A stretch of DNA of 64,000 nt from Vicinamibacterales bacterium (GTDB lineage: Bacteria > Acidobacteriota > Vicinamibacteria > Vicinamibacterales > 2-12-FULL-66-21): positions 91,775 through 155,774 of the forward strand of contig DATHTE010000123.1 in the NCBI GenBank assembly GCA_035463475.1, written 5' to 3'. A program made the translations under genes and the position numbers. The notes beneath the pieces are model-generated. The model had not been told where the DNA came from, searched no databases, and saw only the letters and a program-made list of their open reading frames with translations. Shown here piece by piece: positions 17,724 to 56,464 of this stretch; the first letter of the stretch is position 1, and the number at the start of each line of letters is the position of its first letter.

Positions 17724-17744
17724 CCCGGGCGCACGCAGTCGTAG

Positions 17745-19634: not shown

Positions 19635-19895
19635 ATTCCGCCGGGGTCTTTAGGGGGAATTCCGGCGAGCTTCGCCTTCAGTCATCCGCCGGGAAAGGTA
19701 TCCGCGAGCACTGGTTTCGCCTTACCGCCGGGTTGGTACGGGCGAGGACTTGGCTTCGCCGTTCCGCAAGGGGTGGGCATCGCCGAGGAATGGCGCCGGC
19801 TTCGGGTATTCCGCGGGTCAGGTCCCGGCGAGTCTGGCGTCGCCTCCGGCATTCCCAGGGGTTCGGAATTTGTTTCGGCATTCGGCATTCGGCAT
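19635..19895. repeat. Array of about 5 degenerate 39-48-bp tandem repeats ending in (TCGGCAT)x3, in an intra-operon spacer
   Basis: Units start at 19638, 19686, 19725, 19764 and 19811. Each has the pattern CCGCCGGG - N6-15 - (C/T)CGGCGAG - N1-12 - TTCGCC(T/G). A tandem TCGGCAT heptamer x3 lies at about 19875-19895. GC3 of the overlapping ORF is poor. Confidence 0.55.
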
Positions 19896-19913
19896 TAACA
19901 AGGAGTCAGTAGT

Positions 19914-22242: not shown

Positions 22243-22299
22243 TACGACCCTGCGGCGCCGCACGGCGCATGGTCGCACGGGGGGCCGTGCGGAGATCGG

Positions 22300-24021: not shown

Positions 24022-24043
24022 CCCTCGGCAGAAAGGCCCGGTC

Positions 24044-25429: not shown

Positions 25430-25445
25430 AGCCGGCCGCGGAGCG

Positions 25446-27029: not shown

Positions 27030-27031
27030 TC

Positions 27032-33385: not shown

Positions 33386-33419
33386 GGGCCCTTATAATTC
33401 GAGTCATACACCCGGAGCT

Positions 33420-38972: not shown

Positions 38973-39055
38973 ACCGTGGGTCGTGAAACGACAATCAGAA
39001 AGATTGTTAGCTCTGGTGGCATTAACCTGTTCGCATTACCGCGCTGGGGGACTCG

Positions 39056-40573: not shown

Positions 40574-41962
40574 TCAGGAGATCACTCGCGGCCGGATGTT
40601 CTTGTTGCCCGAGAAGAGATTCTCCGGGTCCCACGCGGTCTTGACGTCCACCAGCCGCGCATAGTTCGCGCCGTAGGCGGCCCGGATGCGGTCGTCCCCC
40701 TCTTCTTCCGTGAGGAAATTGACGTACGTGCCACCGGTCGACAGCGGGCGGATATCCTGCCACGCGCGCCGCGCCCACTCGATGTTCGCGGCGTCGTCCG
40801 CGGCGCGCTCCCAGGATCCCATGATGTTGACCACGGCTGTTGCGTCGCGGTTGCCCGCGGGCGAATGGTCCGCGGGCAGCCGGTTCAGCGCGCCGTCAAC
40901 CGGAAAGACGAGGACCCCGGAGTGCGGCGAAACCGCCCGGAGCGCGGAGTCCCGCAGGTTCTGCAGCGCGTCCGTCGTCAACGCCGGCAGATACTCGGAC
41001 TTCCAGTAGTACCGGCGTCCTTTCGGCTGCGTGGCGTCGAGCACGCTCTGCTGCGAGAGGTAGCTGCGGCGCTGGATGATGTCCCCCACCGGCGACCCGG
41101 TCGCCCTCCACGGTGCGATGAGTTTCTCGCCGTCCGAGGGGGATCCGGAGTAGCACACGAAGAGCGCGACGATCGGTTTCCCGTGAATCATCGTGCTCAG
41201 CCACGGCGCCGGCGGCGCGCGGCGCACCACCGGCACGCATGAGAGTTCGGGAGGCGCGTCGCGAAACACGCGCTGAAACGCCGCGAACACCGCGTCCGCC
41301 TGATCGGCCGGCCACGCGATGGCGCCGCCGTAGATGTCGGGCCCGACCGGATGCAGCCGGTACTCGAACCCGGTGACGACGCCGAAGTTGCCGCCGCCGC
41401 CGCGAAGGCCCCAGAACAGATCGGGGTTCTCCCGATCGCTGGCGCGGACGACCCGCCCATCGGCGGTCACGACCTCGAAGGCGGAGACGTTGTCGCCCGC
41501 CCAGCCAAAGCGACGGGTGAGGTACCCGAAGCCGCCGCCGAGGGTCAGGCCGGCGATGCCCGTGGTCGAGACGAACCCCGCCACGGCGGCGAGGCCGTGG
41601 ATCTGCGTTTCCCGATCGAGGTCGCCGAGGAGGCAACCGGGCTGCGCCCGGGCGACGCGGGCCGCCGGATCGACCCAGACCCCTCGCATCAGCGAGAGGT
41701 CGATCATCAGCGCCTCGTCGCGGACCGCGAGCCCGGCGATGTTGTGGCCGCCGCCCTTGATCGAGAGCGGCAGGCGGAGCTCACGCGCGAAGTTGACGCA
41801 CGAGACCACGTCGCCCACGCCGACGCAGCGCGCGACGAGCGCCGGGCGCCGGTCGATCATGCCGTTCCAGATCGAACGGGCGTCGTCGTAGCCGGCGTCG
41901 CCGGGACCGAGCACGGTGCCGCGCAGCTGCGCCTGCAGGTCGCCCGCGACGGCGGGACTCAC
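40574..41962 (-). CDS. FAD-linked oxidase (FAD_binding_4 + berberine-bridge-enzyme-like C-terminus)
   Basis: GTG at 41962 (GTGA overlap with the upstream stop). PLSIKGGGHNIAG, DLFWGLRGGGGNFGVVTGFEYRLHP, C-terminal NYARLVDVKTAWDPENLF. Confidence 0.9.
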   Translation of the reverse strand: MSPAVAGDLQAQLRGTVLGPGDAGYDDARSIWNGMIDRRPALVARCVGVGDVVSCVNFARELRLPLSIKGGGHNIAGLAVRDEALMIDLSLMRGVWVDPAARVARAQPGCLLGDLDRETQIHGLAAVAGFVSTTGIAGLTLGGGFGYLTRRFGWAGDNVSAFEVVTADGRVVRASDRENPDLFWGLRGGGGNFGVVTGFEYRLHPVGPDIYGGAIAWPADQADAVFAAFQRVFRDAPPELSCVPVVRRAPPAPWLSTMIHGKPIVALFVCYSGSPSDGEKLIAPWRATGSPVGDIIQRRSYLSQQSVLDATQPKGRRYYWKSEYLPALTTDALQNLRDSALRAVSPHSGVLVFPVDGALNRLPADHSPAGNRDATAVVNIMGSWERAADDAANIEWARRAWQDIRPLSTGGTYVNFLTEEEGDDRIRAAYGANYARLVDVKTAWDPENLFSGNKNIRPRVIS

Positions 41963-44319
41963 GCGGTGTTCACCAGAGAACGCCCGGCGATCGCCCGTCG
42001 GCGTCTCGGGTACACGTCCCTCGCGGTCGCGTCCCCTTCGGTGATGCTGACCGTGTTGTCCGCGGGAATCGGGCCCTCCAGCCGCTGCCGCAGGCCGCTC
42101 GGCCACCAGATCTCGATTGCGTCCACCTGCGTAGAGGTGCCGAGCCCAAAGTGCTGCTCGAACGGAAGGCAGCCGAACTGCGATCCGCCGGAGACCAGCC
42201 GGTGCTGCTCGCGCCCGCCAGCCTCGATCTTCACCCGCGCGCCGATCGCGCTTCGATTGCTCTTCGTCCCGACCAGCCGCACGTTCAGGTAGTGGCCCAG
42301 CCGCTCCTTCGGGCAGAACGCGCCGACCGTCAGGAGGTCCCCCGGATAGGCGCCGCCGCTCGCCACGATCAGCGTCATCCGGCCGTCGCCGAACAGGTCG
42401 GCGATATTGACGCCGTGCGACTTGCCGGTGATCGGCAGGCCGGCGGTGAAGGTGACGTCACGAAACCGATCGGCGCTGCCTTCGAGGAGCGTGAGCGGCT
42501 CCACGCGTTCCATGCGAGGGCTGCCGTTCCCCAGGATGATCTCCGAGTAGCCGTCATTGTTGAGGTCGGCGGCATTGCCGCTCATGCTGCCCCAGCAGCC
42601 CGTGATGCCGAGCTCGCGGCTGCGCAGCGTGAACGTTCCGTCGCGATTGTTGCGCCAGACGCGTACGGGTTCGCCGTCGGGCGGCCCCTCGCCGTACTCG
42701 AGCGTGTGGATGACGTCTTCGGAATCCGACCAGACGTTCTGCACCAGGTCGAGCCAGCCGTCGTTGTCGTAATCGATCCAGTAACAGATGCTGCCCAGGC
42801 CGTAGGCGTCCAGGCCCGACTCGCGGCTGACGTCGGTGAACGTGCCGTCGCCGTTGTTGTGGAACAACTGCGAGCGGCCGATCGAGTTGCTGACGAAGAG
42901 GTCCGGGCGGCCGTCGTTGTCGTAGTCACCCCAGGCGGACCCGATCGTCGGCCACTCGGTGATGAGCCCCGCGCGGTCGGTGACGTCGGTGAACGTGCCG
43001 TCGCCGTTGTTGTGGAACAGGCGGTTCCTCGTCTTCCGCTCGAAGAGGGAGCCGAGGTTGAAGGCGACGTAGAGATCGAGGCGGCCGTCCAGGTCGTAAT
43101 CGACCCAGTGCGCGGTGAAGGCTGGTCCCCATCCGGACAGGCCGGAACCCTGGGTGACGTCGGTGAAGGTGCCGTCGCCGTTGTTGTGGTACAGCGAGCA
43201 GTCCCCGCTGAAGAACCCGTTCCTCGTGACGAAGACGTCCGGGTGGCCGTCGTTGTCGTAGTCGCCGATGGTCGTGATGAACGCCGTCAGGCAGGTGTCC
43301 ATTCGCGACGGAATCGACACGTCGGTGAAGGTGCCGTCGCCGTTGTTCCGGTACAGCGTGCAGCCGCCGTGCGCCGCGGCCACGAGCACGTCGAGCCAGC
43401 CGTCCCCGTCGTAGTCGAACACCGCGGTGCCGCGGCCGCCGCTCGTCTTGTCGAGGCCGGCTCGCGACGCGATGTCCTCGAGCCTCAGCATCGATGGTTG
43501 ACGCCCGGAATGCACCTGCATCCGCATGTCGGCCGGCACATCCGGGGCGTAGCCGCCGCTCTTCTCGGCCGCCAACCACAGGAGCAGGCGTGTCCTGGGA
43601 CTCGACCCGTTGAGGCGCATGGCATCCATCGCGTACCGCCCGGCGTCGGCGAAGCGCCCCGCGCGGAATGCCGCCACCGACAGTTCGTGAAGCGCCTGCG
43701 GCCGGACTCGAGCGTCGGCTTCGGCAATCAGCAGCTCGTGAATCGCCTCGTGGTGCAGACCGCACTTGATATAGGTCCGCCCCAGCTCGAGCCGCGCGAC
43801 CGCGTCGCCGGGCGATCGCTCGAGCCGCCGGCGGTATCGCTCGATGAGTTCGCGATACTGCAGCGTCACGTAGACGTGGGCATCGTCGAAGACCTCGCGC
43901 ACGTTGGCGAGGAACGTGCCGAATGCCCCGTCCGGCGACGTGTGATGGCTCGCGAACGCGCGCAACGCCTGCTGAACGGCCAGCGATCCGGAGGACAGGA
44001 ACACGTCGAGCCCGCGGAGCGCGCCGCGCGGCCCGTTCACCCCGGTGAACGACTCGCGAACGTCCTGCACGGCCTCGCTCAACACGACCGGCGTGTCCTC
44101 GGGCGTCGCCATCGACACGAGCCGCGTCACGCGGTTGCTCACCTCTGACACGGCGCCGTCGACGTTGCGCGGGCCGGAGGCGTCTACCGCGATGCGGTCC
44201 TCGACGTCGCCAGGCCGCAGCGCGGAGCGGACCTGCCGGATCGCGCCGTCGAGGAGCCAGAGTCCCGTCTCGATGAGATCCGTGGACTCGCGGACGGTCG
44301 CCAGGAATCGGTTGGCCAT
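41959..44319 (-). CDS. Signal-less TPR + FG-GAP/VCBS + ASPIC/UnbV (CRTAC1-type) protein, 786 aa
   Basis: The N-terminal roughly 300 aa are helical/TPR-like (LELGRTYIKCGLHHEAIHEL) with no signal peptide. Then repeated DYDGDGWLD...LYRNNGDGTFTDV units and C-terminal NRSAIGARVKIEAGG...FGLG...IWWPSG. Paralog of 49914..52268. Confidence 0.85.
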   Translation of the reverse strand: MANRFLATVRESTDLIETGLWLLDGAIRQVRSALRPGDVEDRIAVDASGPRNVDGAVSEVSNRVTRLVSMATPEDTPVVLSEAVQDVRESFTGVNGPRGALRGLDVFLSSGSLAVQQALRAFASHHTSPDGAFGTFLANVREVFDDAHVYVTLQYRELIERYRRRLERSPGDAVARLELGRTYIKCGLHHEAIHELLIAEADARVRPQALHELSVAAFRAGRFADAGRYAMDAMRLNGSSPRTRLLLWLAAEKSGGYAPDVPADMRMQVHSGRQPSMLRLEDIASRAGLDKTSGGRGTAVFDYDGDGWLDVLVAAAHGGCTLYRNNGDGTFTDVSIPSRMDTCLTAFITTIGDYDNDGHPDVFVTRNGFFSGDCSLYHNNGDGTFTDVTQGSGLSGWGPAFTAHWVDYDLDGRLDLYVAFNLGSLFERKTRNRLFHNNGDGTFTDVTDRAGLITEWPTIGSAWGDYDNDGRPDLFVSNSIGRSQLFHNNGDGTFTDVSRESGLDAYGLGSICYWIDYDNDGWLDLVQNVWSDSEDVIHTLEYGEGPPDGEPVRVWRNNRDGTFTLRSRELGITGCWGSMSGNAADLNNDGYSEIILGNGSPRMERVEPLTLLEGSADRFRDVTFTAGLPITGKSHGVNIADLFGDGRMTLIVASGGAYPGDLLTVGAFCPKERLGHYLNVRLVGTKSNRSAIGARVKIEAGGREQHRLVSGGSQFGCLPFEQHFGLGTSTQVDAIEIWWPSGLRQRLEGPIPADNTVSITEGDATARDVYPRRRRAIAGRSLVNTA

Positions 44320-44326
44320 GGGCGGT

Positions 44327-44896
44327 TCAGACCCTCTTCAGCGGGCGCGGGATCGTGTAGTAAACGGAGGCGATGGCGCAGCCGAAGCTCGGCGTGTCCG
44401 CCCTTGGAATGGGACGGCCCGCCAGCAGGCATACGACCGCCGGTTCGAGGTACGCCTCGTACTCGTTGTCTTCGGGGTACTTGAAATTGTCGATGGCCCC
44501 CCGGTAGACGAGGCGGCTTTCGGCGTCCACGAGAAAGGCGCGCGGCGTCTGCTGCGTGAACAGTTGGCGGGCGACCGCCGTTCCGGTGTCGTAGAGCGTC
44601 GGGAACACCAGCCCGCGCGCGGCGAGCGCCGCGCGCACGTCATCGGCCGTTTCGTCCTGTCGCGACGCAATCGCCGCGAACGCCAGCTCGGGATGCTGCT
44701 CGGAGAACTCGTTCAGGTACCGGTCGTACCGCGCGCAATGCGAGCACACGCTCGACCAGAACACCAGGACGGCGCCGCGGCCGCGCGCGGCCATCTCGTG
44801 CAGCCGCCAGGGTCCGTGCGGCGGCGTGACGAACGAGAGCGCGAAGTCGGGCAGGATGGTTCCGATTGCTTGCTCGGTGCGTTGCTCCGGCGACAT
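44327..44896 (-). CDS. Thioredoxin-fold (redoxin/TlpA-like) protein with CxxC and a conserved C-terminal GC motif, no signal peptide
   Basis: GGAGG upstream of ATG 44896. VLVFWSSVCSHCARY (CxxC), TPRAFLVD, C-terminal TPSFGCAIASVYY. About half of the residues are identical to the 49349..49921 protein by eye. Confidence 0.8.
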   Translation of the reverse strand: MSPEQRTEQAIGTILPDFALSFVTPPHGPWRLHEMAARGRGAVLVFWSSVCSHCARYDRYLNEFSEQHPELAFAAIASRQDETADDVRAALAARGLVFPTLYDTGTAVARQLFTQQTPRAFLVDAESRLVYRGAIDNFKYPEDNEYEAYLEPAVVCLLAGRPIPRADTPSFGCAIASVYYTIPRPLKRV

Positions 44897-44914
44897 TCGA
44901 TCAGCCCTCCTCGA

Positions 44915-45928
44915 TCACACCTGTCGCTCCGTCACGCCAGACGCCACCGCGACGGCCCGCCCCGAGGGTGCGAGCAGCCAGAGCCCGACCGCGCTCACGA
45001 CACCCATCGCGGCGATGCCGGCCCACTGCGCGGGAGACGGCCGGACCTGGGCCACCGTGGCGGCGAATTGTATCAGGCAGAGCGCGCCGATGATCCGCAG
45101 GAGCAGGACGCGCGAGATGCGGGCCGCGATGTACGCGCCGGCCGGTGCGCCGAAGATCACGATCGGCATGGCCGCGAGCCATTCCGGGAACACCGCCGGA
45201 TCGACGCCGGCCGTGACCGCGCGAAGCAGGAGCCCGACGGGAGCCATCAGCGCTGTGGCGCACACCGCCGTCGGGACCGCGGCCTTCGGATGCCAGCCGA
45301 AGCGCAGCACGAGCGTCGCGTACACGACCATCTCAGGTCCGACGCCGATGAGCGACATCACCGCGCCGCCCACGATGCCGACCGCGATCCCGATGGGCAC
45401 GACCTCGCGACCAGGGGCCGGCATCGACGGACCCGCGACGTCCTGCGCTGCTGCGCCGGTGGCGAGCCAGGCGCCGAACGTGATCCAGAGCGTGGCGAAC
45501 AGGAGCTTCACCCAGTCGGCGGGCACGCGGCCGGCGAGCGCGAAGGTGCCGAACGTCAGGCCGGCAGCGGCGCCCACGCAGGCCCAGGTGAGCAGGCGAT
45601 GCTCGACCGGAATGCGGCGCACGAGGATGAACAGCAGCGCCGACGACATGCCGACCGACTGGATCGCCAGGCCGAAATCGCGGGCCATCGCCGGCGAATA
45701 CTGGAACCCGAGGACGAGCGCGGGAAACGAGACCGTGCCGCCGCCCATCGGCGTCGATCCGGCGACGAGCGACCCGCCGATCATGATGAGCGCCATCGGC
45801 CAGTGGAGAAGCGCCACCAGCCACGCGCCGGGCCGCGTGACGAGCAGGATCCAGACGACCAGCCAGAAGGCGACGTAGGCGTGCCACACGCGCGCGCGCG
45901 CCAGTGCATCGTGCACGCGCGAGTTCAC
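44915..45928 (-). CDS. TauE/SafE-family anion (sulfite/sulfonate-type) permease
   Basis: GTG at 45928 (GTGA overlap). Multi-TM protein with GGSLVAGSTPMGGGTVSFPALVLG and IVGGAVMSLIGVGPEM, the duplicated Gly-rich TauE motifs. Start uncertain (GTG 45916 is also possible). Confidence 0.75.
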   Translation of the reverse strand: MNSRVHDALARARVWHAYVAFWLVVWILLVTRPGAWLVALLHWPMALIMIGGSLVAGSTPMGGGTVSFPALVLGFQYSPAMARDFGLAIQSVGMSSALLFILVRRIPVEHRLLTWACVGAAAGLTFGTFALAGRVPADWVKLLFATLWITFGAWLATGAAAQDVAGPSMPAPGREVVPIGIAVGIVGGAVMSLIGVGPEMVVYATLVLRFGWHPKAAVPTAVCATALMAPVGLLLRAVTAGVDPAVFPEWLAAMPIVIFGAPAGAYIAARISRVLLLRIIGALCLIQFAATVAQVRPSPAQWAGIAAMGVVSAVGLWLLAPSGRAVAVASGVTERQV

Positions 45929-47505
45929 GGAGCGTGCCTCCGGTAGAGGATCAGGAACAGGATCAGGGCGCCGATTGCGGCGAACAGGCCCGCGCCGACC
46001 GGGTCCGCCCATGTCACGCCCGACGCGATGAGCGCCGGCGTGGCGAGCCCGATTGCCGCCAGCGCCAGCAGCAGGGAGCCGACGACCGACATCCGCGGCC
46101 CCGCCGCGTCCGCGCGCCGCTCGGCCGCCAACGGGCCGGACGCGAGCGCGGTGATCAGCCGCCACCCGGCTTCGCGGACCGATCTCGCGGTGGTTGGCGA
46201 CACGCCGGTGAGCGTCTCAACCTGCGAGGCGATCAGTCGGATCTGCAGGGTCTCGAGCGTGTTGCGGAGAACGTCGGCTTCGGCGCCCATTGCGGTGGCC
46301 GCGCTGACCGCCGCGAGGCAGCCCCGGTAGAACGACACGAGGCGTGGCTTCGGCTGGTAGCCGTGCTCGACCGCGATGCGCCAGTGCAGCAGAAGCTGCG
46401 CCAGCAGCTCGCTGCCCCCCGCCGCATCCGAGTCGACGCTCCATGCGTGGCGGATTCGCCGCTCGAAGCCCGCCCCGTCCACGCCGCGCTGCGGCACCAG
46501 CTCGCGTTTCAGGTAGCGGATGGCCAGGTCCGGGTCGCCGGCCGCCACGGCGACGAGGTACGTCTGCAGCGTCATCTGCGCGTCGGTCGGCAGGCTCGTG
46601 AACAACCGCCCGCCGAGCGCGACCTGGCGGCGCCCGGCGATGATGAAGTCGGCCGGCGACGGCTCTTCCGGGAACGCGCGTCCGAGCAGCGCCTGGCGGA
46701 CCCAGGCGCGGCACGCGCTCGCCGCGGTCTCAGGGACATCGAGGCCAGGCGTGTCCCACGGCACGGCCGCGACCTCGTCCCAGACCGCGACACGGCGCGA
46801 CGACAACCGGGGGTGCGGCCGGCGCGCGCGCAGCGGCGGAAACCGCCGCGCATCGGCCACGAGCGCGTCGCTGGCGGTGACGTCGGCGGAGAGATCCAGC
46901 AAGCGGCGCGCGTGAGCGCGGTACTCCTCGACGGCGAGATCGAACACGTGCCGGCCGCCGAGCGCCGGCGCCAGGGCCGTCGACAGCCTGGGCAGCAGGT
47001 GCAGCTCGCGGTCGAGGCGTGCCTCGAACGAGCGCGGGATGCACGTCACCACCACCGCGTCGGTCGGCGACAGCCACGCGCGGTGCGACTGGGTCGGAAA
47101 CCGCGTCTCGAACGGCTTCTCGTCGAAGGCGACGCACACCCGCTCGATCCGCCGGCGCCAGCCGGCTTCCACGACTTCCTGGATTTCCGGCCAGGGCGCG
47201 GGGGCGACCCGGTCGGCCACGCGCGCGAAATCCGCGCGCAGGCCAGCCGGCGTCACGTCCGCACGCGTGGCAAGAAAACGCGCGAACCCGGCGAAGACCG
47301 GCCCGAGCTCCGTCAGGAGCCGCAGGAGTTCATCCGCCGCCCCTTCGGCGCTCGCCAGCTCGCGCACGTCCCTCGCCACGGCCTCGAGCCGCCGCTTCGT
47401 TTCCTCGGGGCTCTCGACCCAGTGCGCGGCTACGGGCGCGGGGAGGACTTCGAGCGTCTCACCCATCGCCGTGGACGCGGGAAGGACTTCGACCGTCTCA
47501 CTCAT
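45925..47505 (-). CDS. ABC1/UbiB-like pseudokinase (second copy), two C-terminal TM helices
   Basis: ATGA overlap at 47502-47505. LGPVFAGFARFLATRADVTP in place of KxGQ. VVVTCIPRS in place of VAVKVQRPG. No HxDxHPxN or DFG motif. Same length class as the 25446 protein. Confidence 0.7.
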   Translation of the reverse strand: MSETVEVLPASTAMGETLEVLPAPVAAHWVESPEETKRRLEAVARDVRELASAEGAADELLRLLTELGPVFAGFARFLATRADVTPAGLRADFARVADRVAPAPWPEIQEVVEAGWRRRIERVCVAFDEKPFETRFPTQSHRAWLSPTDAVVVTCIPRSFEARLDRELHLLPRLSTALAPALGGRHVFDLAVEEYRAHARRLLDLSADVTASDALVADARRFPPLRARRPHPRLSSRRVAVWDEVAAVPWDTPGLDVPETAASACRAWVRQALLGRAFPEEPSPADFIIAGRRQVALGGRLFTSLPTDAQMTLQTYLVAVAAGDPDLAIRYLKRELVPQRGVDGAGFERRIRHAWSVDSDAAGGSELLAQLLLHWRIAVEHGYQPKPRLVSFYRGCLAAVSAATAMGAEADVLRNTLETLQIRLIASQVETLTGVSPTTARSVREAGWRLITALASGPLAAERRADAAGPRMSVVGSLLLALAAIGLATPALIASGVTWADPVGAGLFAAIGALILFLILYRRHAP

Positions 47506-49193
47506 CTCGTTTGTCGCGCGAGCTCTATTGCGAGGGCCACCAGAGCGACCGATCCGACGGCCAGTTCCGCGGTGCCCAGGTTCAAGCCGGCGTGGAGCGG
47601 GGTCGGCGCGTTCGACACGCTCACCGCGCAGGCGAGCGCCGCCGCGCCGAGCTGCAGGGCCGCCGCCGCGGCCCGGGACCGCAGGCGCCGCAGCGTCGCC
47701 ACGGTGCCAAGCCCGCGGCTCGCCAGCGAACGCCCCGATTCGACGGCCCGCAGCGCGGCCGCCCACCCGGCGAAAAGAAGCTGCCGGCTCGACTCGGCCT
47801 CCAGCGTCGCCAGGGAGGCCTGCTCGATCTCGTGACCGAGCTCCAGGTCCGGCGCGAACCGGTGGATCACGCCGTCCAGCGTCATCACCGATCGAATGTA
47901 TTTGACGACTTCGCGCTCGGGCAGCATCGCCGTCTGCCGCGACAACCCGAGCATCTCGACCATCACCAGCGCCGCGGGCTTGCGAAGCCGCGTGCCCCCC
48001 GGCCCGCCGTACCATCCGTCCGCCATCGCCTCGAGACCGGTCCGAAACGCAACCGGATCGGCGTCCGGGCGCGGCACGACCAGCTTCAGGAAACTCCGGT
48101 GAAGGTCGTCGACGTCGCGCCGCACGAGGGCGAGCGTCATCGCGGCGAGCCAGCTTCGCGCGTAGGGACCGATGCTGCCTGCGATGCCGAAGTCCACGTA
48201 GCCGACCACGTTGCCCGGCAGGATGAGCAGGTTGGCCGGGTGCAGGTCGGCATGGAACAGCCCGTGGTGAAACGAGTCTGTCGTGAAGTTGAAGATAATC
48301 TGGCGCCCGAAATTGCCCGGGTCGAAGCCCTGCTCCTTGAGCCGATCGACCAGCTCGCGGTCGTTCGACTCGACGGCCCGCATGTAGGTGGCCATCGGCA
48401 CGCCGTCGAGATATTCGGTGACGAGCACGCGCCGCGTGGTCAGCCCCATGAAAACTTCGGGTATCCGCACGCCTGTCCGGCCAGCTGACTGGCGGCGCAC
48501 GAGCGAGATGTGCCGCGCCTCGCGACGGAAGTCGAGTTCCTCGTCGGTCCAGGCGGCGAACTCCCGGATCGGTTCGTCGAGCCAGTACAGCGGCCGGACG
48601 CGGAGTGCCCTGATGACACGAAGCAGGATCAGCATCATCCTGACGTCCGCCCGGAATTGCCGCTCGACCCCCGGTCGCTGGACTTTGACGGCGACCAGGC
48701 GCCCGTTCAGACGCGCCACGTGCACCTGCGCAATCGACGCGGTTGCGAGCGGTTGGGGGTCCATCGCCTCGAGCCGGCTGGCGGCGGGACCGAGCTCATC
48801 CGCAATGGTCTGCCGCACGACGTCGACCGGTACCGGCGCGACGCGGTCCAGCAGATCGAGCAACTGCGTGGCGTACCCGAGGGGCAGCAGATCCGGTTGG
48901 ACGGCGAGCACCTGGCCGAACTTCACGAAGCTGCCGCCGAGATCTTCGAGGAGCACGCGAAACCGCATCGGGCCGGCGAGGTGCGGGGTCCCGAAGCGGG
49001 ATGAGAGCCACCGCCATCCCAGTCGGTCGGCGGCGGCGGCCATCAGGTGGCGGCCGAGCACACCGGCGACGTGGCGCATCCGGCCGATCCAGACGAGAAT
49101 CCCGGCTGCCTGCGCCGCCGCGGAAGGCGCAGGAGCAGGGCGGGCCATCTCGTCGGTCGCAACGATTTGTGACTGTTCGGTCGTGTCAACCAT
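47502..49193 (-). CDS. ABC1/UbiB-family atypical protein kinase (second canonical copy)
   Basis: GGSFVKFGQVLAVQPDLLP, ASIAQVHVARLNGRLVAVKVQRPG, FHADLHPANLLI, YVDFGIAG. ATG at 49193 is preferred over TTG at 49220. Confidence 0.9.
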   Translation of the reverse strand: MVDTTEQSQIVATDEMARPAPAPSAAAQAAGILVWIGRMRHVAGVLGRHLMAAAADRLGWRWLSSRFGTPHLAGPMRFRVLLEDLGGSFVKFGQVLAVQPDLLPLGYATQLLDLLDRVAPVPVDVVRQTIADELGPAASRLEAMDPQPLATASIAQVHVARLNGRLVAVKVQRPGVERQFRADVRMMLILLRVIRALRVRPLYWLDEPIREFAAWTDEELDFRREARHISLVRRQSAGRTGVRIPEVFMGLTTRRVLVTEYLDGVPMATYMRAVESNDRELVDRLKEQGFDPGNFGRQIIFNFTTDSFHHGLFHADLHPANLLILPGNVVGYVDFGIAGSIGPYARSWLAAMTLALVRRDVDDLHRSFLKLVVPRPDADPVAFRTGLEAMADGWYGGPGGTRLRKPAALVMVEMLGLSRQTAMLPEREVVKYIRSVMTLDGVIHRFAPDLELGHEIEQASLATLEAESSRQLLFAGWAAALRAVESGRSLASRGLGTVATLRRLRSRAAAAALQLGAAALACAVSVSNAPTPLHAGLNLGTAELAVGSVALVALAIELARQTR

Positions 49194-49223
49194 CGTTGTT
49201 TGTGCACCGCTCCCGCGCAAGGA

Positions 49224-49239
49224 GTGGTAACCTTACCAC
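49224..49239. promoter_or_regulatory. Perfect 16-bp palindrome GTGGTAACCTTACCAC in a 155-bp divergent promoter region
   Basis: The 7-2-7 inverted repeat was read directly: GTGGTAA (49224-49230) / TTACCAC (49233-49239). It is locally AT-richer than the surroundings. It lies between the divergent operon starts at 49193 (minus) and 49349 (plus). Confidence 0.5.
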
Positions 49240-49348
49240 AGACACAGACGGCATCTGTAGATCGTGATCCGCCCATCCTCCATCGATGGGTATTCGTGTG
49301 GTCACCGGCGTTGGCCACGCTCCACTTACGACAATCTGGCGGACCGAT

Positions 49349-49921
49349 ATGGACACGTCCACTGGACAGGCGATCGGGAGTATCGTCCCGGAGTTGAACC
49401 TGCCGGCCGTCTACACCGGCGTCGCGCGCTCGCTCGACGTGTGCCTGGCCGGGCGTCGCGGCGGTGTGGTCCTGTTCTGGTCGAGCGTCTGCACGCACTG
49501 CGTCCGTTACGACGCGTATTTCAACGGGCTCGAGGCGGCGCATCCGGAGCTGGCGTTCTACGCGGTCGCGACGCGGCACAGCGAAACCCTCGACGAGATC
49601 CGCAAGGCCCTGTCGGATCGCGGCCTGCGGTTTCCGCTCTATCACAGTCCCGACGGCGCGGCCGCCCGGGCGTACTTCGCGCAGCAGACGCCGCGCGTCT
49701 ACCTCGTCGATCCGCTCCGGACATTGCGGTATCGAGGCGCGGTGGACAACTTCAAGTATCCCGACGACCCTGAGTACGAGCCGTACCTGGAACGGGCGAT
49801 TGCGAGCTTCCTGGCGGGCGAAGCAATCGAGCGTCCCGAGACCAGCAGCTTCGGCTGCGCGGTCCGGTCGGTGTACTACGATCTGCCGAAGATGATCGAG
49901 CGCCCATCCACCCATGGCTGA
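49349..49921 (+). CDS. Thioredoxin-fold (redoxin/TlpA-like) protein, paralog of 44327..44896
   Basis: ATG at 49349. VVLFWSSVCTHCVRY (CxxC), TPRVYLVD, TSSFGCAVRSVYY. Confidence 0.8.
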   Translation: MDTSTGQAIGSIVPELNLPAVYTGVARSLDVCLAGRRGGVVLFWSSVCTHCVRYDAYFNGLEAAHPELAFYAVATRHSETLDEIRKALSDRGLRFPLYHSPDGAAARAYFAQQTPRVYLVDPLRTLRYRGAVDNFKYPDDPEYEPYLERAIASFLAGEAIERPETSSFGCAVRSVYYDLPKMIERPSTHG

Positions 49922-52268
49922 TTCCCTGGCCGACCCGCGCAGCCTGCCGCCCCGCGTCTTCGAGCTGGGGCTGCACACGTTCAGCCGGGCGATTGCGGCA
50001 ACGCAGTCGTGGCTCGGCACGATCGACGGCGCTCCGCCGAGTCACGTCACGATCCGTCCGGCCGTGGACGGCCCGGACGACCTTGACCGCGCCACCTCGG
50101 ATTTCGCAAACCGGATGGCGAGAATCCTGCGGTACGCCACGCTGACCGGCGCCAGCGCGCCCGGCGTGGCCGACGAGGTCGCCGACGCCTTCCGCGCAAG
50201 CTTCGCCCGCGTCGCCCCGCAGGACCTTCGCGGCCTGATCACGTTTCCGATTCGCCTGCCGCTGTCGTTCGGGTCGCTGTTCGCGCAGGAACTGGTGCGC
50301 GGGCTGCACGCGGTCGAGATCGTCGGCGCCACGCGGGCGCCGTCGTTCCTGATCGAGCTGGTCGAGGCGTTTCTCGATTACCCGGTCTTCCAGGCGCTGC
50401 AGTACAAGGACGAGATCGATCGATACCGCGAGCGGCTGCGCCGGGTCCCGGGCGACGCGACCGCGCGCCTGCAGCTTGGCCGGACGTACATCAAGTGCGG
50501 GCTCTACGCGGAGGCGCTCGACGAGCTCGCGCTCGCGGTGGAGGACCCGCGCACGCACGCGCAGGCGCTCTACGAGCGGGCGGTCGCGGGGACGCGGTCG
50601 GGACGCTATCACCAGGCGATCCGGGACGGTGTACGGGCGATAGAGGCTGGGGCATCCGAGCTGCGCGCGCAGCACTGGGTCTGGCTCGCGTCGCAGAAGC
50701 TGGGCGGATACCCGGACGACACGCCCCCCGAACGCCGCGTCGCGATGAAGACAGGACTGGCGCCCACGCGGCTCCGGTACCGCGACGTCGCTCGAGAAAT
50801 CGGGCTCGACAAGACGTCGGGCGGCCGCGGCACGGCGATCTTCGACATCGACGGCGACGGTGAGCTCGACGTGATCATCTCCGCCGTCAGCGCCGGCTGC
50901 AGCGTGTACCGCAACAACGGCGACGGCACGTTCCGGGACGCATCGGTCGCGTCGGGCCTCGACGCGTGCGTCAACTCCTGGGGGATCAGCGCGGGGGACT
51001 ACGATAACGATGGCCGCATCGACCTGTTCGTGACCCGTCTCGGTTTCTTCGACGGCGAGGCGGCGCTGTACCGCAACAACGGCGACGGCACCTTCACCGA
51101 CGTCACGCGCGAGGCAGGCGTCCAGGGCTGGGCGCCGGGGTTCACGGCGGGCTGGGTGGACTTCGATCTCGACGGCCGCCTGGACCTCTTCGTTCCCAGC
51201 AACCTTGGAGGCGTGTTCCACCGGCCCAAGCGCCACCGGCTGTTCCACAACAACGGCGATGGAACGTTCACCGACGTCACGCTGGACGCGCGTTTGGCCC
51301 CGTGGGGGCCCACCGTGGGCGCAACGTGGGGAGACTACGACAACGACGGGTATCCCGACCTGTTTCTGAGCAGCGCGTTCGGCCGCTCGCAGCTGTTTCA
51401 CAACAACGGAGACGGGACCTTCACCGACGTCAGCGCCGCTGCGGGGATCAATCGGCCGTGTTTCGGCATGGTCGCGTTCTTCTGCGACTACGACAACGAC
51501 GGCTGGCTCGACCTCGTCCAGTACCTGTGGTGCAGCAACGAGGACATGATCCTGAGCCTGCGACATGGCGCGCCGTCATCCTCCGGGCAGCCGCTGCGCG
51601 TCTACCACAACAACCGTGACGGCACCTTCACGCTGGCGAACGACGAACTCGGCATCGTGGAGTGCTGGGGCTCGATGAGCGGCAACGCTGCCGACCTCGA
51701 CAACGACGGCCGCCTCGATCTACTGCTCGGCAACGGCGGCCCGCAGATGGACCGCAGCGATCCGCTCGTGGTGCTCGCGAACGACGGCGGGCGGTTCCGG
51801 AACATCACGTTCGCGGCCGGCCTGCCCGCGGCCGGCAAAGCGCACGGCGCGAACGCGGCCGACCTGCACGGCGACGGGCGGATGAGCCTCATCGCCGCCT
51901 CGGGCGGCATGTATCCCGGCGAACTGCTGACCACCTCTGTCTTCCGGCCCGAGGAACTGACGGGGAATTACCTGAACGTGCGGCTCACGGGTGTCACGTG
52001 CAACCGCGACGCGATCGGCGCGCGACTGAAGTTGACGACGGCCGGACGGGAGCAGCACCTCGTGATCAACGGCGGCAGCCAGTTTGGCTGCCTGCCATTC
52101 GAGCAGCATTTCGGGCTCGGATCGGAGCGCGGCGCCGGCCGGCTCGAAATCTGGTGGCCTGGAGGACCGCGCGAGGTTCTCGAGCGTCTTCCGGCCAACG
52201 CGACCGTGACGATCACACAGGGCGAAGGCCGCTGGACCGTCGTCAAAAGGGGACCGAATCCACTATGA
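49914..52268 (+). CDS. Signal-less TPR + FG-GAP/VCBS + ASPIC/UnbV (CRTAC1-type) protein, 784 aa (paralog of 41959..44319)
   Basis: 8-nt overlap with the upstream Trx-like gene. LQLGRTYIKCGLYAEALDEL (TPR), repeated DYDNDG..DL...LYRNNGDGTFTDV units, C-terminal NRDAIGARLKLTTAG...FGLG...IWWPGG. Confidence 0.85.
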   Translation: MADSLADPRSLPPRVFELGLHTFSRAIAATQSWLGTIDGAPPSHVTIRPAVDGPDDLDRATSDFANRMARILRYATLTGASAPGVADEVADAFRASFARVAPQDLRGLITFPIRLPLSFGSLFAQELVRGLHAVEIVGATRAPSFLIELVEAFLDYPVFQALQYKDEIDRYRERLRRVPGDATARLQLGRTYIKCGLYAEALDELALAVEDPRTHAQALYERAVAGTRSGRYHQAIRDGVRAIEAGASELRAQHWVWLASQKLGGYPDDTPPERRVAMKTGLAPTRLRYRDVAREIGLDKTSGGRGTAIFDIDGDGELDVIISAVSAGCSVYRNNGDGTFRDASVASGLDACVNSWGISAGDYDNDGRIDLFVTRLGFFDGEAALYRNNGDGTFTDVTREAGVQGWAPGFTAGWVDFDLDGRLDLFVPSNLGGVFHRPKRHRLFHNNGDGTFTDVTLDARLAPWGPTVGATWGDYDNDGYPDLFLSSAFGRSQLFHNNGDGTFTDVSAAAGINRPCFGMVAFFCDYDNDGWLDLVQYLWCSNEDMILSLRHGAPSSSGQPLRVYHNNRDGTFTLANDELGIVECWGSMSGNAADLDNDGRLDLLLGNGGPQMDRSDPLVVLANDGGRFRNITFAAGLPAAGKAHGANAADLHGDGRMSLIAASGGMYPGELLTTSVFRPEELTGNYLNVRLTGVTCNRDAIGARLKLTTAGREQHLVINGGSQFGCLPFEQHFGLGSERGAGRLEIWWPGGPREVLERLPANATVTITQGEGRWTVVKRGPNPL

Positions 52269-53284
52269 ACACCACAACATCTGCTCGTCCGATCATTCCC
52301 GACAACTTCACGGCCCTCGAGAAATCGCTCGTCGAGAAGAGCGAGCAGGCAATCGTGAAGGGTCGTGAACTGGAGCACTGGTCGCGCGATCCCCGCCGCC
52401 GCATCCGGCAGTTCCCGCTGTCGCTCAATCGTCCGTATGCGCTGCCGAACCGTGCCTGGGGATACTTCGCGGACGTCTGCATCGAAGGACGGACGCTGGC
52501 GGCCCTGGGCTGCCAGCAGCAGGTCGAGTTCGGCCGAATCACCGGTCCGAACCCCGAGGAGCGGCTGCTGGAGTACGTCCTGGGGCGTTTCCTGAGCACC
52601 TCGGCGTGGATGTATCCGGACGGCAACGCGGGCGGCTTCACGATTCAACAGATGCTGTACTGCGATGCCGAGCGGCGGTGCGGCCGCTATCCGGCCGACC
52701 AGCTGACCGTCGCGCGGGACTGGCGTGAGATCGGAACGAAATACCAGTGGTCGTTGCTCACCATCTTCCTGCACGACTTCGTCATTCATCTCGGTCCGAT
52801 GAAGACCATCCTCAAGGAAGCGGTGGCGGTGGTACAGCACCCGGATTTCGTCCACATCGTGCCGGGCCCGAAGCCAGGCTACAAACTCGAAGTGGCGATC
52901 GGGTACCCGTTCATTGATTACGCTCCGGTCCCGAACTATTTCGGCTTCGGTCCCGGCAAGTTCGACTGGGCGGTCAAGACCTACTCGTTCCTGCTGCGCG
53001 ACAACAACGAGGTCCGGTGCGACATGGAGTTCGTCGCCGGCGCCCGGGCGAAAAAGGTGTTCGATTTCGGCTCGTACATCCCGTGCCCGCTCTACGGGAC
53101 GTCGGACCTGATGGAGTTCCTCACACTCGGGGTGTACAAATCACAACCGTTCCGCGACTATATGGACCTGCAGATGGCGGTCGAGCACGCCCACGTCCAC
53201 CAGGCGTTGATGGAAGGCAGTTCGAAGATTTTCGCCGCGTGGGAGAAGACCGCGTCCCTCGAGCCGGCGATGGCAGGTGTGTAA
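52265..53284 (+). CDS. Hypothetical protein (339 aa) homologous to the C-terminal domain of the 827-aa protein
   Basis: ATGA overlap at 52265-52268. See the alignment blocks listed for 27032..29515. No family recognised. Confidence 0.7.
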   Translation: MNTTTSARPIIPDNFTALEKSLVEKSEQAIVKGRELEHWSRDPRRRIRQFPLSLNRPYALPNRAWGYFADVCIEGRTLAALGCQQQVEFGRITGPNPEERLLEYVLGRFLSTSAWMYPDGNAGGFTIQQMLYCDAERRCGRYPADQLTVARDWREIGTKYQWSLLTIFLHDFVIHLGPMKTILKEAVAVVQHPDFVHIVPGPKPGYKLEVAIGYPFIDYAPVPNYFGFGPGKFDWAVKTYSFLLRDNNEVRCDMEFVAGARAKKVFDFGSYIPCPLYGTSDLMEFLTLGVYKSQPFRDYMDLQMAVEHAHVHQALMEGSSKIFAAWEKTASLEPAMAGV

Positions 53285-53290
53285 CCGGCG

Positions 53291-53773
53291 TCAGCTGGAT
53301 TGATCGCCCGGCCCGGAAGGGCTTGGGGCGTCGCCGCCGCGGCGCTTCACCAGAAGCTTGTCGCGAAAGACGAGCACCAGTTCGCCGCGTTGGTTCAGCA
53401 CGCGGCTTTCGAACACGATCGTGCCTTGCGTCGCCCCGAGCGCCTGGCGCTCCACGACACGCTTGACGACGTGAATCGTGTCGCCGATGAACACCGGCGA
53501 GACAAACCGAAGCTTGTCGACGCCGGCGAAGGCCAGCAGCGTGTCCTCCAGCAAGTTCATGCGCGTCGTGAGACCGATCGAGATCCCGAACACGAGGGCG
53601 CCGTGCGCGATGCGGCGGCCGAACGTCGTCGTCTTTGCGTATTCCTCGTTCGTGTGCAGTTCCGTGAAGTCGCCGGTGAGCCCGGCGAACGCCATGACAT
53701 CCGCTTCCGTCACCGTCCGGCCGCGCGACGTCGCGTCTTCGGGTGACGCGAAGTCCTCGAAATACAGACCCAC
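53291..53773 (-). CDS. MaoC-like (R)-specific enoyl-CoA hydratase / hot-dog dehydratase
   Basis: GRTVTEADVMAFAGLTGDFTELHTNEEYA....FGRRIAHGALV is the classic MaoC dehydratase motif (D...H...GxRIAHG). Confidence 0.9.
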   Translation of the reverse strand: MGLYFEDFASPEDATSRGRTVTEADVMAFAGLTGDFTELHTNEEYAKTTTFGRRIAHGALVFGISIGLTTRMNLLEDTLLAFAGVDKLRFVSPVFIGDTIHVVKRVVERQALGATQGTIVFESRVLNQRGELVLVFRDKLLVKRRGGDAPSPSGPGDQSS

Positions 53774-53857
53774 GCTGAGCCTCCCCCCTGGGGACTCGAC
53801 TATAGCGCAGGCCCGCTATGCGCCGCGTCGCGGATTGATCTCCGTCGAACTAATGCG

Positions 53858-53886
53858 TTGACACTAGAAGCGCCCTACCCTACGAT
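53858..53886 (+). promoter_or_regulatory. Sigma70-like promoter candidate upstream of the FadL-type porin
   Basis: TTGACA (53858-53863), a 17-nt spacer, then TACGAT (53881-53886), about 115 nt upstream of ATG 54001. A 6-6-6 inverted repeat ATAGCG/CGCTAT lies at 53802-53819 in the same divergent region. Confidence 0.4.
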
Positions 53887-54000
53887 TCTCCTCGAACTCC
53901 GCATACCGCAAACAGATTGCGCCGACGGCCGGGTGAACCTCTGGGTGCGCGCGCCGTGCCAGCGCGCGCCGGCGGACGGCCCGGTGTGTACGAGGTGACG

Positions 54001-55290
54001 ATGACTCGTGGCTTGACCGCGGCATTCACGCTGGCAGCGCTGCTGCTTCTGATCTCCGCACCTGTGGCTGGCCAGGGACACATGCTCCACGGCGTCGGCC
54101 CGGTCAACTCCGCGATGGGGGGCGCCGGGACCGCTCTACCGGAGGAGTCGCTGGCGGCCTTGACGTTCAATCCTGCGCTGATCGCGTCGGTCGAAGGCAA
54201 CCAGATCACGTTCGCCACCGAGTTCTTCAAAGACGGCATCGAGGTCGAGACGACTGTCGGGAACCTGGTCGGACGCGCCAACCCGAGCAGCCAGGTCGTG
54301 GCCATTCCGGCTTTCGGGTGGATGCTGCGCGATCCGAAAGGGAAGCTGGCCCTCGGGTTTGGCCTGATCGGCCTCGCCGGGTTCGGTGTCGACTACCCGT
54401 CGGACGACGCAAGCATCCTGTTCGCGCAGCCGCCGCAGGGATTCGGCCGCATCTACACGGATTACCGCGAGACGAAGATCCCGGTGGCGTTCGCCTACCA
54501 GGTCACGCCGAAGCTCGCTCTGGGCGTGTCGCTGAACGTCTACATAGGCGAGTTTGCCGTGGCGCCACTCCCGTACAAGGTGTTCGACCTTGATCCGTCC
54601 GGCAACCGCTTCTATCCAGAGGCGGGCAGGCTCAATCGTTCGTGGGCGCTCGCGGGGCAGTTCGGGTTTCGATACCAGGCGAGTCCGCTGCTCAGCTTCG
54701 GCGCGTCGTTCACGACGCCGCAGGACTTCTCGACGTACGAGTGGAACTCGACGATCGCGGACCCCGGTTCGCCGGCATTTGGGCGTCCGCAGAAGCTCGA
54801 GTTCGACCTGGACGGCCCGATGATCGTGAGCTTCGGCGCCGGCGTGACGCCGGGGACGAAGACGCGAATCGCGATCGACGGGATGTTTACGAAATACAAG
54901 GGCGTGAACGGCTTCGGCAGCCCGGGCGGGATCATCGACCGCGTGGTGTATCCATTCGGTTGGCGGAACGTCTGGACCTTCAAGGCGGGCATGCAGCATC
55001 AGGCGACCGGCAAGCTCACCCTGCGCGCCGGCTACAACTACAGCCAGATGCCCCTTCGAGAGGCGGTGGTCCTCACCGCGACCGGCGCGCCGGCGACGTT
55101 CCAGCACCACTTCTGCGGCGGCATGGGCGTGAAGATGTTTCCTTTTCTCGAGGCGGTGGTCTCGGCGTACTTCGTGCCGCGCCAGCATGTCGTCGGGCCG
55201 TTCCCGGACTTGGACAACAACATCAGGGGCACGCTGGACGAATCGAATAAGCTTACCGGCGCCTTGATCGGCATGAGCTTCAGGTTCTAG
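54001..55290 (+). CDS. FadL/OmpP1/TodX-family outer-membrane hydrophobic-compound channel
   Basis: Signal peptide MTRGLTAAFTLAALLLLISAPVAGQG, N-terminal hatch motif GVGPVNSAMGGAGTALPEESLAALTFNPALIA, and a beta-barrel ending ...GMSFRF. Confidence 0.8.
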   Translation: MTRGLTAAFTLAALLLLISAPVAGQGHMLHGVGPVNSAMGGAGTALPEESLAALTFNPALIASVEGNQITFATEFFKDGIEVETTVGNLVGRANPSSQVVAIPAFGWMLRDPKGKLALGFGLIGLAGFGVDYPSDDASILFAQPPQGFGRIYTDYRETKIPVAFAYQVTPKLALGVSLNVYIGEFAVAPLPYKVFDLDPSGNRFYPEAGRLNRSWALAGQFGFRYQASPLLSFGASFTTPQDFSTYEWNSTIADPGSPAFGRPQKLEFDLDGPMIVSFGAGVTPGTKTRIAIDGMFTKYKGVNGFGSPGGIIDRVVYPFGWRNVWTFKAGMQHQATGKLTLRAGYNYSQMPLREAVVLTATGAPATFQHHFCGGMGVKMFPFLEAVVSAYFVPRQHVVGPFPDLDNNIRGTLDESNKLTGALIGMSFRF

Positions 55291-56273: not shown

Positions 56274-56464
56274 GTGTCCACGCCACGCTGAGCCGGTCGC
56301 GGTCTCCGGTCTGACGACATCCTCCGACATGTGGTAGCCTTTCGGCGCCGCGTTGACGCCGTGAGGACCATGCCTGCCGCCACCACATTCGAGTTGACCT
56401 CCTCCCCAATCGAAAAGCCGTATTCCCCACCGATCAGCTCGAAGAGCGGCCCAGTTGAAGAACG

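Follow-up and report, generated by a model that had tools for sequence, protein, structure and literature searches.

A 64,000-nucleotide (nt) stretch of a Vicinamibacterales genome (Acidobacteriota; contig DATHTE010000123.1, positions 91,775 to 155,774), referred to here as the window, carries two divergent operons, in each of which a gene for a small redoxin is followed by a gene for a CRTAC1-like protein with a tetratricopeptide repeat (TPR) region. The G+C content of the window is ~68%, and codon-position G+C was used to tell real genes from the many spurious open reading frames (ORFs). The closest relatives of the window proteins come from metagenome-assembled genomes (MAGs) of Vicinamibacterales, and the presence of an Alginate_exp-type porin and of FadL, both outer-membrane families, indicates a diderm cell. 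Domains were called with Pfam and NCBIfam, junctions were taken from gene coordinates, and an Rfam search over the whole window gave no match. The two operons consist of the following genes (aa, amino acids).

47502-49193, minus strand: ABC1/UbiB-type atypical kinase, first gene of the minus operon (Pfam ABC1, 3.6e-52, 177 bits)
45925-47505, minus strand: degenerate ABC1-like protein (Pfam ABC1, 27.5 bits) that has lost KxGQ
44915-45928, minus strand: TauE/SafE-family anion permease (Pfam TauE, 3.6e-18)
44327-44896, minus strand: TrxA, a 189-aa redoxin (Pfam Redoxin, 2.8e-12; AhpC-TSA, 2e-10)
41959-44319, minus strand: CRTAC1-A, 786 aa, TPR plus FG-GAP plus UnbV_ASPIC (Pfam)
40574-41962, minus strand: FAD-linked oxidase, last gene of the minus operon (Pfam FAD_binding_4 and BBE)
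49349-49921, plus strand: TrxB, a 190-aa redoxin with C-T-H-C and SFGC (Pfam AhpC-TSA), paralogue of TrxA
49914-52268, plus strand: CRTAC1-B, 784 aa (Pfam), collinear paralogue of CRTAC1-A
52265-53284, plus strand: U339, a 339-aa protein without a Pfam or NCBIfam match

Three junctions of the minus operon are 4-nt overlaps (ABC1 kinase/degenerate ABC1-like protein, degenerate ABC1-like protein/TauE and CRTAC1-A/BBE oxidase), and its gaps measure 18 nt between TauE and TrxA and 7 nt between TrxA and CRTAC1-A. In the plus operon, TrxB and CRTAC1-B overlap by 8 nt, and the stop of CRTAC1-B overlaps U339 by 4 nt. Two divergent operons with this gene content, these domains and these junctions had been described in a first-pass annotation made from the sequence, and Pfam, NCBIfam and the coordinates agree with it. 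The first kinase contains the ABC1/UbiB motifs VKFGQ, FHADLHPAN and VDFG, and scores 246 bits against the NCBIfam UbiB model, under the cut-off of 487 bits. The second copy had been called a pseudokinase; the fall of the ABC1 score from 177 to 27.5 bits and the change of VKFGQ to FAGFAR in the KxGQ region speak for that call. It is probably a pseudokinase, likely inactive.

The conservation of the pairing was assessed in both directions. A scan of one genome per species for the redoxin yielded 68 loci (given L numbers below) with 78 redoxin genes; two of these, at a contig end, were left out, and the 76 with room downstream were scored. As a result, 70 of the 76 have a full-length CRTAC1-subfamily gene, N-terminal region included, directly downstream on the same strand, with -12 to +104 nt between the two genes. 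The test was also run in reverse, on metagenome contigs selected on the N-terminal/TPR region of CRTAC1 only; here the redoxin lies directly upstream of 57 of the 59 CRTAC1-subfamily genes with room upstream. Taken together, the genome and metagenome tests recover the pairing in more than 120 independent loci. The 68 loci, most of them acidobacterial and a few with doubtful bin labels, span Vicinamibacterales, Bryobacterales/Solibacteraceae, other Terriglobia, one Thermoanaerobaculia, two Verrucomicrobiales and one Deltaproteobacteria MAG, and a CRTAC1 gene is present within 10 kilobases (kb) in 41 of the 43 long loci (at least 15 kb). The genome-neighbourhood statistics that the first-pass annotation had put forward as a check on its proposed redoxin-CRTAC1 couple thus show a near-universal adjacency in both directions. 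The couple is borne out, and the adjacency is not unique to this genome. In the literature searched, no paper was found on the redoxin-CRTAC1 pairing, on a cytoplasmic CRTAC1/UnbV protein or on the surrounding island.

The two copies in the window proved to be old paralogues. TrxA and TrxB are 52% identical over 186 aa, with the motifs FWSSVC[ST]HC and SFGCA[IV].SVYY in both, and CRTAC1-A and CRTAC1-B align collinearly over 762 aa at 54% identity, in agreement with the earlier description of the redoxins as about half identical and of the larger proteins as collinear paralogs. Neighbour-joining trees with bootstrap were built, one for the redoxin and one for CRTAC1. In both of them the A and B types form clades with 100% bootstrap each, A-type redoxin going with A-type CRTAC1 and B with B, as expected of the inverted two-gene module duplication that had been suggested. 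Both copies occur in the same divergent layout in four other Vicinamibacterales species (L001, L002, L003 and L006) and also, with genes in frameshifted pieces, in L062. Identity to TrxA is 69-74% for the A-type redoxins, which stand beside A-type CRTAC1 proteins at 78-79%; identity to TrxB is 75-78% for the B-type redoxins, which stand beside B-type CRTAC1 proteins at 81%. Because the A and B clades are separate and fully supported in both trees, the pair must have been passed on as one unit and its duplication is old, and the phylogeny places the duplication before the syntenic Vicinamibacterales species. A recent lineage-specific duplication is ruled out by the 52-54% identity together with the phylogeny. 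Monophyly of A plus B is unsupported (bootstrap 53% in the redoxin tree and 5% in the CRTAC1 tree), and the duplication may date back to the separation from Bryobacterales, or else copy B may be a separate acquisition. The redoxin and CRTAC1 distance matrices correlate at r=0.82, with a partial r of 0.68-0.91 after control for the CLC channel, U339 or the ABC permease of the same loci, a correlation that shows co-inheritance and is no proof of contact. A layout unlike that of the window was seen in Bryobacteraceae (L055, L057, L058 and L063), where the order is a tandem one of redoxin, CRTAC1, NaH exchanger, U467, in some cases a second U467, redoxin and CRTAC1.

The redoxin is assigned by its profile matches to a TlpA/ResA-like, PRX_like1-related thioredoxin fold. 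TrxA exceeds the Pfam cut-offs for both Redoxin and AhpC-TSA and TrxB that for AhpC-TSA, and the family comprises 866 members at E≤1e-5. The active-site residues of TrxA are C51-S-H-C54, the cis-Pro loop T117-P118, and C173 within SFGC. Across 16 diverse redoxins the invariant residues are W47, S48, C51, H53, C54, T117-P118-R119, Y131-R-G-A-x-D-N-F-K-Y140 and S170-F-G-C173, and C51, C54 and C173 are present in 61 of 61. A His before the second Cys, as in protein disulfide isomerase (PDI; CGHC) and DsbA (CPHC), goes with a nucleophilic first Cys and a readily formed disulfide, and it is this His that is invariant in the C-x-H-C of the redoxin. The closest solved structures to the redoxin profile are 2ywi, 3u5r and 2cvb, matched end to end at E values of 4e-17 to 2e-13. 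T117-P118-R119 aligns with the T-P of 2ywi and 3u5r, an alignment from which the cis conformation is predicted, and SFGCA[IV] aligns with sIGCSIK of the same two structures, that is, with the C-terminal G-C-x-I cysteine of PRX_like1. The best NCBIfam matches are ResA and DsbE, both far under the cut-off, and none is to a peroxiredoxin model; compared by sequence alone, S48-x-x-C51 together with the invariant R119/R132 could mimic the peroxidatic PxxxT/SxxC motif and its Arg.

With the PRX_like1 proteins (2ywi of Geobacillus, 3u5r of Sinorhizobium, 2cvb/2ywo of Thermus) the redoxin thus shares the active site, the T-P loop, YRG.D and the C-terminal G-C-x-I. It differs from them in its identity of ~30%, in invariants of its own (WSxxCxHC, YRGAIDNFKYP and SFGCA..SVYY) and in its near-obligate pairing with a CRTAC1-like gene. 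The FWxxxCxxC layout is shared with ResA/TlpA, but in contrast to ResA, DsbE and TlpA the window redoxins have no export signal, lipoprotein signal or membrane anchor. A deiodinase-like identity was considered and found no support in Pfam or PDB profile searches. When a plasmid collection was searched with the redoxin, three distant PRX_like1 relatives of ~30% identity were the only matches. At one distant relative, a 29%-identical PRX_like1 'thioredoxin family protein' on pSymB of S. meliloti (L129, 2846133-2856672), the gene is preceded by a truncated haemoglobin and followed by a FAD-binding protein, a ferredoxin and an aliphatic-sulfonate-type ABC transporter. This hints at a link of redoxin relatives to sulfonate-type transport, echoing the ABC and TauE association around the redoxin-CRTAC1 pair.

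The partner is built, in CRTAC1-A, of an N-terminal helical domain (~1-150), a TPR region (~155-265), an FG-GAP beta-propeller and a UnbV_ASPIC domain. FG-GAP_3 is matched at 2e-54 and 4e-52 in five stretches of each copy, with DxDxDG calcium motifs whose D, N and G columns are invariant, and UnbV_ASPIC (PF07593) scores 53.1 and 41 bits in the two copies, above the cut-off of 23.4. The Pfam TPR matches in CRTAC1-A are weak and under the gathering score; residues 151-257 match consensus TPR proteins in the PDB at 7e-23, and residues 294-743 match human CRTAC1 (9etn) at 1.6e-14. An AlphaFold2 (AF2) model of residues 1-295 from seven sequences gave confident paired helices at 155-254 and a helical segment 1-150 with a predicted local confidence (pLDDT) below 50. 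A homologue search with the first 307 aa was dominated by FG-GAP words (8000 candidates scored) and gave 10 matches, mostly truncated or frameshifted, which seeded one alignment. An exhaustive HMMER search with residues 1-172 gave 37 representatives; all but one, a 913-aa protein of repetitive sequence, had this region at or near their own N-terminus, and none was clearly of another architecture. The N-terminal helical and TPR region of ~290 aa is confined to the paired CRTAC1 subfamily.

Among 62 homologues of the partner, 190 columns are at least 95% conserved. C186 (TPR, 'YIKCG') and C717 (UnbV domain, 'FGCLPFEQHFGLG') are each present in 59 of the 62, and the two together in 57 of 61 partners; the UnbV-domain consensus of the paired subfamily is GGSxFGCLPFEQHFGLG. 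The window holds seven CRTAC1-family genes in all, the five others being listed here.

10333-12066, minus strand: CRTAC1-family gene with an exported-type N-terminus
56459-58843: CRTAC1-family gene with an exported-type N-terminus
58798-60570: CRTAC1-family gene with an exported-type N-terminus
61191-62999: CRTAC1-family gene with an exported-type N-terminus
62906 to the end of the window: CRTAC1-family gene with an exported-type N-terminus

Their N-termini are Sec- or Tat-like (hydrophobic or twin-arginine). An equivalent of C717 is missing from the four of them with an alignable UnbV domain, the fifth running off the window. Compared with these four aligned exported paralogues, the paired subfamily has 38 invariant positions at which the paralogues differ, many of them within 577-721 (M579, S580, K633, H635, N638, Y658, Y677, N679, C717, P719 and E721), and 63 invariant positions are common to both groups. 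No redoxin gene was found near the four CRTAC1-family genes at 56-64 kb. The gene at 62906 to the end has a TPR region of its own, and a separate exported TPR protein is encoded at 60571-61272.

The paired subfamily thus resembles the CRTAC1/ASPIC/UnbV family in its five FG-GAP_3 stretches with DxDxDG and its C-terminal UnbV_ASPIC domain, and departs from it in having no signal peptide, in the ~290-aa N-terminal helical and TPR region, in 38 invariants of its own (C717, H635 and E721 among them) and in a near-obligate redoxin partner. Soil and aquatic bacteria have CRTAC1/ASPIC/UnbV proteins in abundance, and the family is conserved as far as humans; to our knowledge, its members have no assigned molecular activity. 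UnbV (E4-type) of enediyne polyketide warhead cassettes presumably belongs to the same Pfam family, by name rather than by sequence comparison. In its own pathway, which processes a hydrophobic polyene, it is likewise a conserved partner to which no function has been assigned. Unlike such a cassette, the window contains no enediyne polyketide synthase, thioesterase or UnbU/UnbL genes, and the literature search found no open-access text tying UnbV to enediynes. One published paper names ASPIC/UnbV just as an expanded paralogue family in Solibacter.

Both members of the pair appear to be cytoplasmic. None of the 61 CRTAC1-subfamily homologues has a signal peptide, lipobox, membrane anchor or hydrophobic N-terminus, and no hydrophobic segment or signal peptide was read at the N-termini of the redoxins in the 16-sequence alignment. 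In copy A, moreover, the open frame reaches just 6 codons upstream of the TrxA and CRTAC1-A starts, which leaves no room for a missed N-terminal extension. The short open frames and the N-termini of the homologues bear out the earlier description of the CRTAC1 proteins as signal-less. The redoxin and its CRTAC1 partner are, in sum, a cytoplasmic, near-obligate, co-inherited two-gene unit. Both proteins fall into known superfamilies, in which each makes up a distinct subfamily.

The third gene of the plus operon encodes U339, which the first-pass annotation had left as an unknown 339-aa protein. That description holds at the level of sequence families, since U339 has no Pfam, NCBIfam or PDB sequence match, and does not hold at the level of fold, which was recognisable by AF2 and Foldseek. 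The AF2 model has a mean pLDDT of 86.7, and its best Foldseek matches are CERT START, STARD3 and the carotenoid-binding domain of BmCBP (probability 1.0, E 2e-6); STARD3 and BmCBP bind lutein/carotenoids. U339 is accordingly modelled as a START/Bet v 1-like helix-grip fold with a predicted hydrophobic cavity. It shares the helix-grip fold with the START domains of CERT, STARD3 and BmCBP and differs from them in TM-scores of 0.25-0.5, an identity of at most 10%, its larger size (339 aa), a long terminal helix and the lack of sequence-family membership. Its homologues number 244, all 'hypothetical', with 59-86% identity among the 120 matches listed. A distant paralogue (23-25% identity) lies at 28289-29158, within a ~900-aa ORF (26789-29515) without a Pfam match, just upstream of a halogenase-like gene. 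Beyond U339, a MaoC-like dehydratase gene convergent with it (6-nt gap) and a FadL-type outer-membrane channel occupy 53291-55290; FadL homologues also flank the redoxin-CRTAC1 pair in L016, L064 and L067.

Between the two operons, alignment of the intergenic regions revealed one conserved element.

49226-49243, no strand assigned: 18-nt motif GGTAACCTTACCACAGAC, kept in L001, L002, L003, L006 and L062

The motif, a candidate for a promoter or operator shared by the divergent operons, occurs once in the window, with 0 chance matches expected, and holds the small palindrome GGTAA-CC-TTACC; its distance is 33 nt to the start of ABC1 and 106 nt to that of TrxB. A scan of the divergent region for the sigma-70 consensus and for terminators found nothing, and an inverted-repeat scan found one weak 14-nt pair only, inside the ABC1 start region.

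A larger recurrent island surrounds the pair, and its families recur despite heavy rearrangement. Neighbourhoods were counted over the 43 long loci, with ORF clustering over all 68, and with tblastn queries consisting of window proteins and representatives of three neighbour families from outside the window. The most frequent family is a NitT/TauT-type ABC permease (17 of the 43), followed by the CLC channel (16), TauE (13), U339 (13, at ≥50% query coverage), a halogenase-like flavoenzyme (11), an RPE65-like oxygenase (11), U467 (10), ABC1 (8), an Alginate_exp-type porin (8), DinB_2 (7) and BBE (6). Nearly all of these families are also present in the window between 22 and 55 kb, where the following features lie outside the two operons.

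37671-39035, minus strand: CLC chloride channel (Pfam Voltage_CLC, 4e-67), elsewhere often directly upstream of the redoxin
29515-31308, plus strand: flavin-dependent-halogenase-like protein (PDB matches tetracycline 7-halogenase, ChlB4 and CndH)
31305-32738, plus strand: RPE65-like oxygenase (Pfam)
32735-33385, plus strand: DinB_2 (Pfam)
33309-34670, plus strand: c18, a 453-aa protein co-directional with the halogenase-like block
22243-27029: second ABC1 module, with an ABC1 kinase (22243-24021), a U467 homologue (23999-25429) and a weaker ABC1-like protein (25329-27029)

The halogenase-like protein contains VGAGLAG and GLWFWVIPL (WxWxIP), and one of its Lys residues aligns with a Lys of tetracycline 7-halogenase and is a candidate for the catalytic residue. 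Elsewhere, genes for this protein and for the RPE65-like oxygenase often stand directly downstream of the redoxin-CRTAC1 pair, and in no fewer than 8 other loci the gene called immediately before the redoxin is TauE. The BBE oxidase follows CRTAC1-A in Vicinamibacterales loci (L001-L004, L006 and L062); outside them it is full-length in L040 only, where it is not adjacent to the pair. The second ABC1 module parallels the ABC1/degenerate-ABC1 pair of the minus operon, and its U467 homologue is 31% identical to the Bryobacteraceae members. Upstream of the island, 14009-21599 encodes a ketosynthase and a second ketosynthase-like protein (14009-16485), an HMG-CoA-reductase-family protein (16272-17723), a flavin amine-oxidase/desaturase-like protein (17745-19247) and an acyltransferase (19899-21599), and looks like a lipid or polyene biosynthetic block.

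On this basis we propose that the redoxin and the CRTAC1-like protein work together in the cytoplasm as a single functional unit of two proteins, which this genome holds in two old paralogous copies. That the two genes belong to one such unit has good support; the proposal as a whole, with the mechanism and the substrate set out below, we regard as evenly balanced between right and wrong. The redoxin would serve the propeller protein, or the ligand bound to it, as a dedicated thiol-disulfide partner. The TPR/N-terminal domain would dock the redoxin, whose C-x-H-C pair would then undergo redox cycling with Cys186/Cys717 of the propeller, or with a ligand or intermediate that the propeller holds; it is in this sense that we infer a thiol-based mechanism for the couple. 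From its neighbourhood, the unit may work on or sense a hydrophobic small molecule, possibly halogenated or sulfur-bearing, because a START-fold binder, an RPE65-like oxygenase that would cleave C=C bonds, a halogenase-like flavoenzyme, ABC1/UbiB kinases, FadL, CLC, TauE and a NitT/TauT-type ABC importer recur around it. Dedicated redoxins encoded in operons are known, NrdH with class Ib ribonucleotide reductase and ResA with cytochrome c maturation. The likeness lies in a small CxxC thioredoxin-fold protein encoded beside one client and presumably specific for it, whereas the presumed client here is a TPR-beta-propeller protein without an assigned activity.

Several observations weigh against this proposal. 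Six of the 76 redoxin genes are exceptions to the pairing. In three Terriglobia-type loci (L011, 3241-7009; L036, 9965-13750; L041, 9989-13739) the order is CLC, redoxin, halogenase-like and RPE65-like, with a 4-nt overlap between redoxin and halogenase-like genes and no CRTAC1 gene within 10 kb, so that the redoxin can couple to a partner other than CRTAC1. In L016 and L052 the redoxin follows two large upstream genes, with a full-length CRTAC1 gene ~7 kb downstream in the former and none in the 3 kb available in the latter; in the sixth, L060, the CRTAC1 gene is divergent from the redoxin. Four of the 61 CRTAC1 partners have lost C186 and/or C717 though their redoxin is intact, and a C186-C717 disulfide, weakened as a candidate by these four, cannot therefore be the universal substrate of the redoxin. 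The model of the N-terminal domain of CRTAC1-A is of low confidence, the neighbourhood is variable, with no accessory family in more than ~40% of the long loci, and shared phylogeny inflates the mirror-tree correlation. Contact and electron transfer between the two proteins are predictions from sequence.

The same observations have to be set against other explanations. The two proteins could be co-transcribed and yet biochemically independent, the redoxin being a general cytoplasmic antioxidant (peroxiredoxin-like, acting on lipid or small-molecule hydroperoxides) and CRTAC1 a scaffold or binder within one regulon for stress or metabolism. Such a division of labour would fit the membership of the redoxin in Pfam Redoxin/AhpC-TSA, the uncharacterised peroxiredoxin-like proteins that are its closest solved relatives, a neighbourhood rich in lipid-handling and oxygenase genes (START fold, RPE65, ABC1 and FadL) and the dispensability of the CRTAC1 cysteines in the four partners. 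However, the adjacency is two-way and near-obligate over class and phylum distances despite the rearrangement around it, both genes were duplicated and passed on together, and the redoxin carries a CxxC dithiol instead of a single peroxidatic cysteine, for which reasons we find independence somewhat unlikely. The true client might otherwise be the halogenase-like/oxygenase branch, or a halogenated or electrophilic intermediate dealt with by reductive dehalogenation or reactive-halogen quenching, with CRTAC1 as an accessory. Chemistry of this kind exists in thioredoxin/peroxiredoxin-fold deiodinases and in the CxxC debrominases of marine bromopyrrole pathways. The three loci in which redoxin and halogenase-like genes overlap without CRTAC1 point in that direction, as do several others in which redoxin, CRTAC1, halogenase-like and RPE65-like genes are co-directional, the WxWxIP motif and solved-halogenase matches, and the CLC chloride channel often found directly upstream of the redoxin. 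Yet a halogenase-like gene lies within 10 kb in 11 of the 43 long loci and CRTAC1 in 41, and the redoxin profile matched neither deiodinase nor known dehalogenase structures, nor a Pfam deiodinase family; we consider this explanation improbable.

An exported or periplasmic redoxin of the ResA/DsbE/TlpA kind, acting on disulfides of a secreted calcium-binding propeller, could be argued from the sub-threshold ResA and DsbE matches and from the export of human CRTAC1 and of the other CRTAC1 paralogues of the window, but the absence of export signals and anchors from all 61 partners and all 16 aligned redoxins, and the lack of room for an extension in copy A, make it very improbable. As for a chance or genome-specific adjacency that arose by recent local duplication, the presence of two copies within 10 kb of the window is the one point in its favour, and its likelihood is negligible in the face of the divergence of the copies (52-54% identity), the occurrence of both in at least five other species and the number of independent loci.

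Going further, the redoxin-CRTAC1 pair might conceivably form the core, catalytic or sensing, of a cytoplasmic pathway not described so far that would be widespread among soil Acidobacteriota and occur also in some Verrucomicrobiota, an extension of our proposal that we regard as rather unlikely. The propeller would then be a thiol-dependent enzyme acting on a hydrophobic polyene-like or isoprenoid-like, possibly halogenated metabolite, the C-x-H-C redoxin would supply or accept reducing equivalents, and the island of ~33 kb would provide uptake, halide/anion transport and tailoring. Acidobacteriota are a dominant and poorly understood soil phylum, and the structures of PRX_like1-type redoxins come from structural genomics, their entries naming them hypothetical, uncharacterised or 'probable' proteins. 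The pairing links one subfamily of each of these two families without an assigned function, the redoxins and the CRTAC1/ASPIC/UnbV proteins, and makes them testable through a known partner, named cysteines and a set of residues specific to the subfamily. Enzymatic activity of the redoxin-CRTAC1 pair, if established, would throw light on the role of UnbV-type proteins, a question of long standing.

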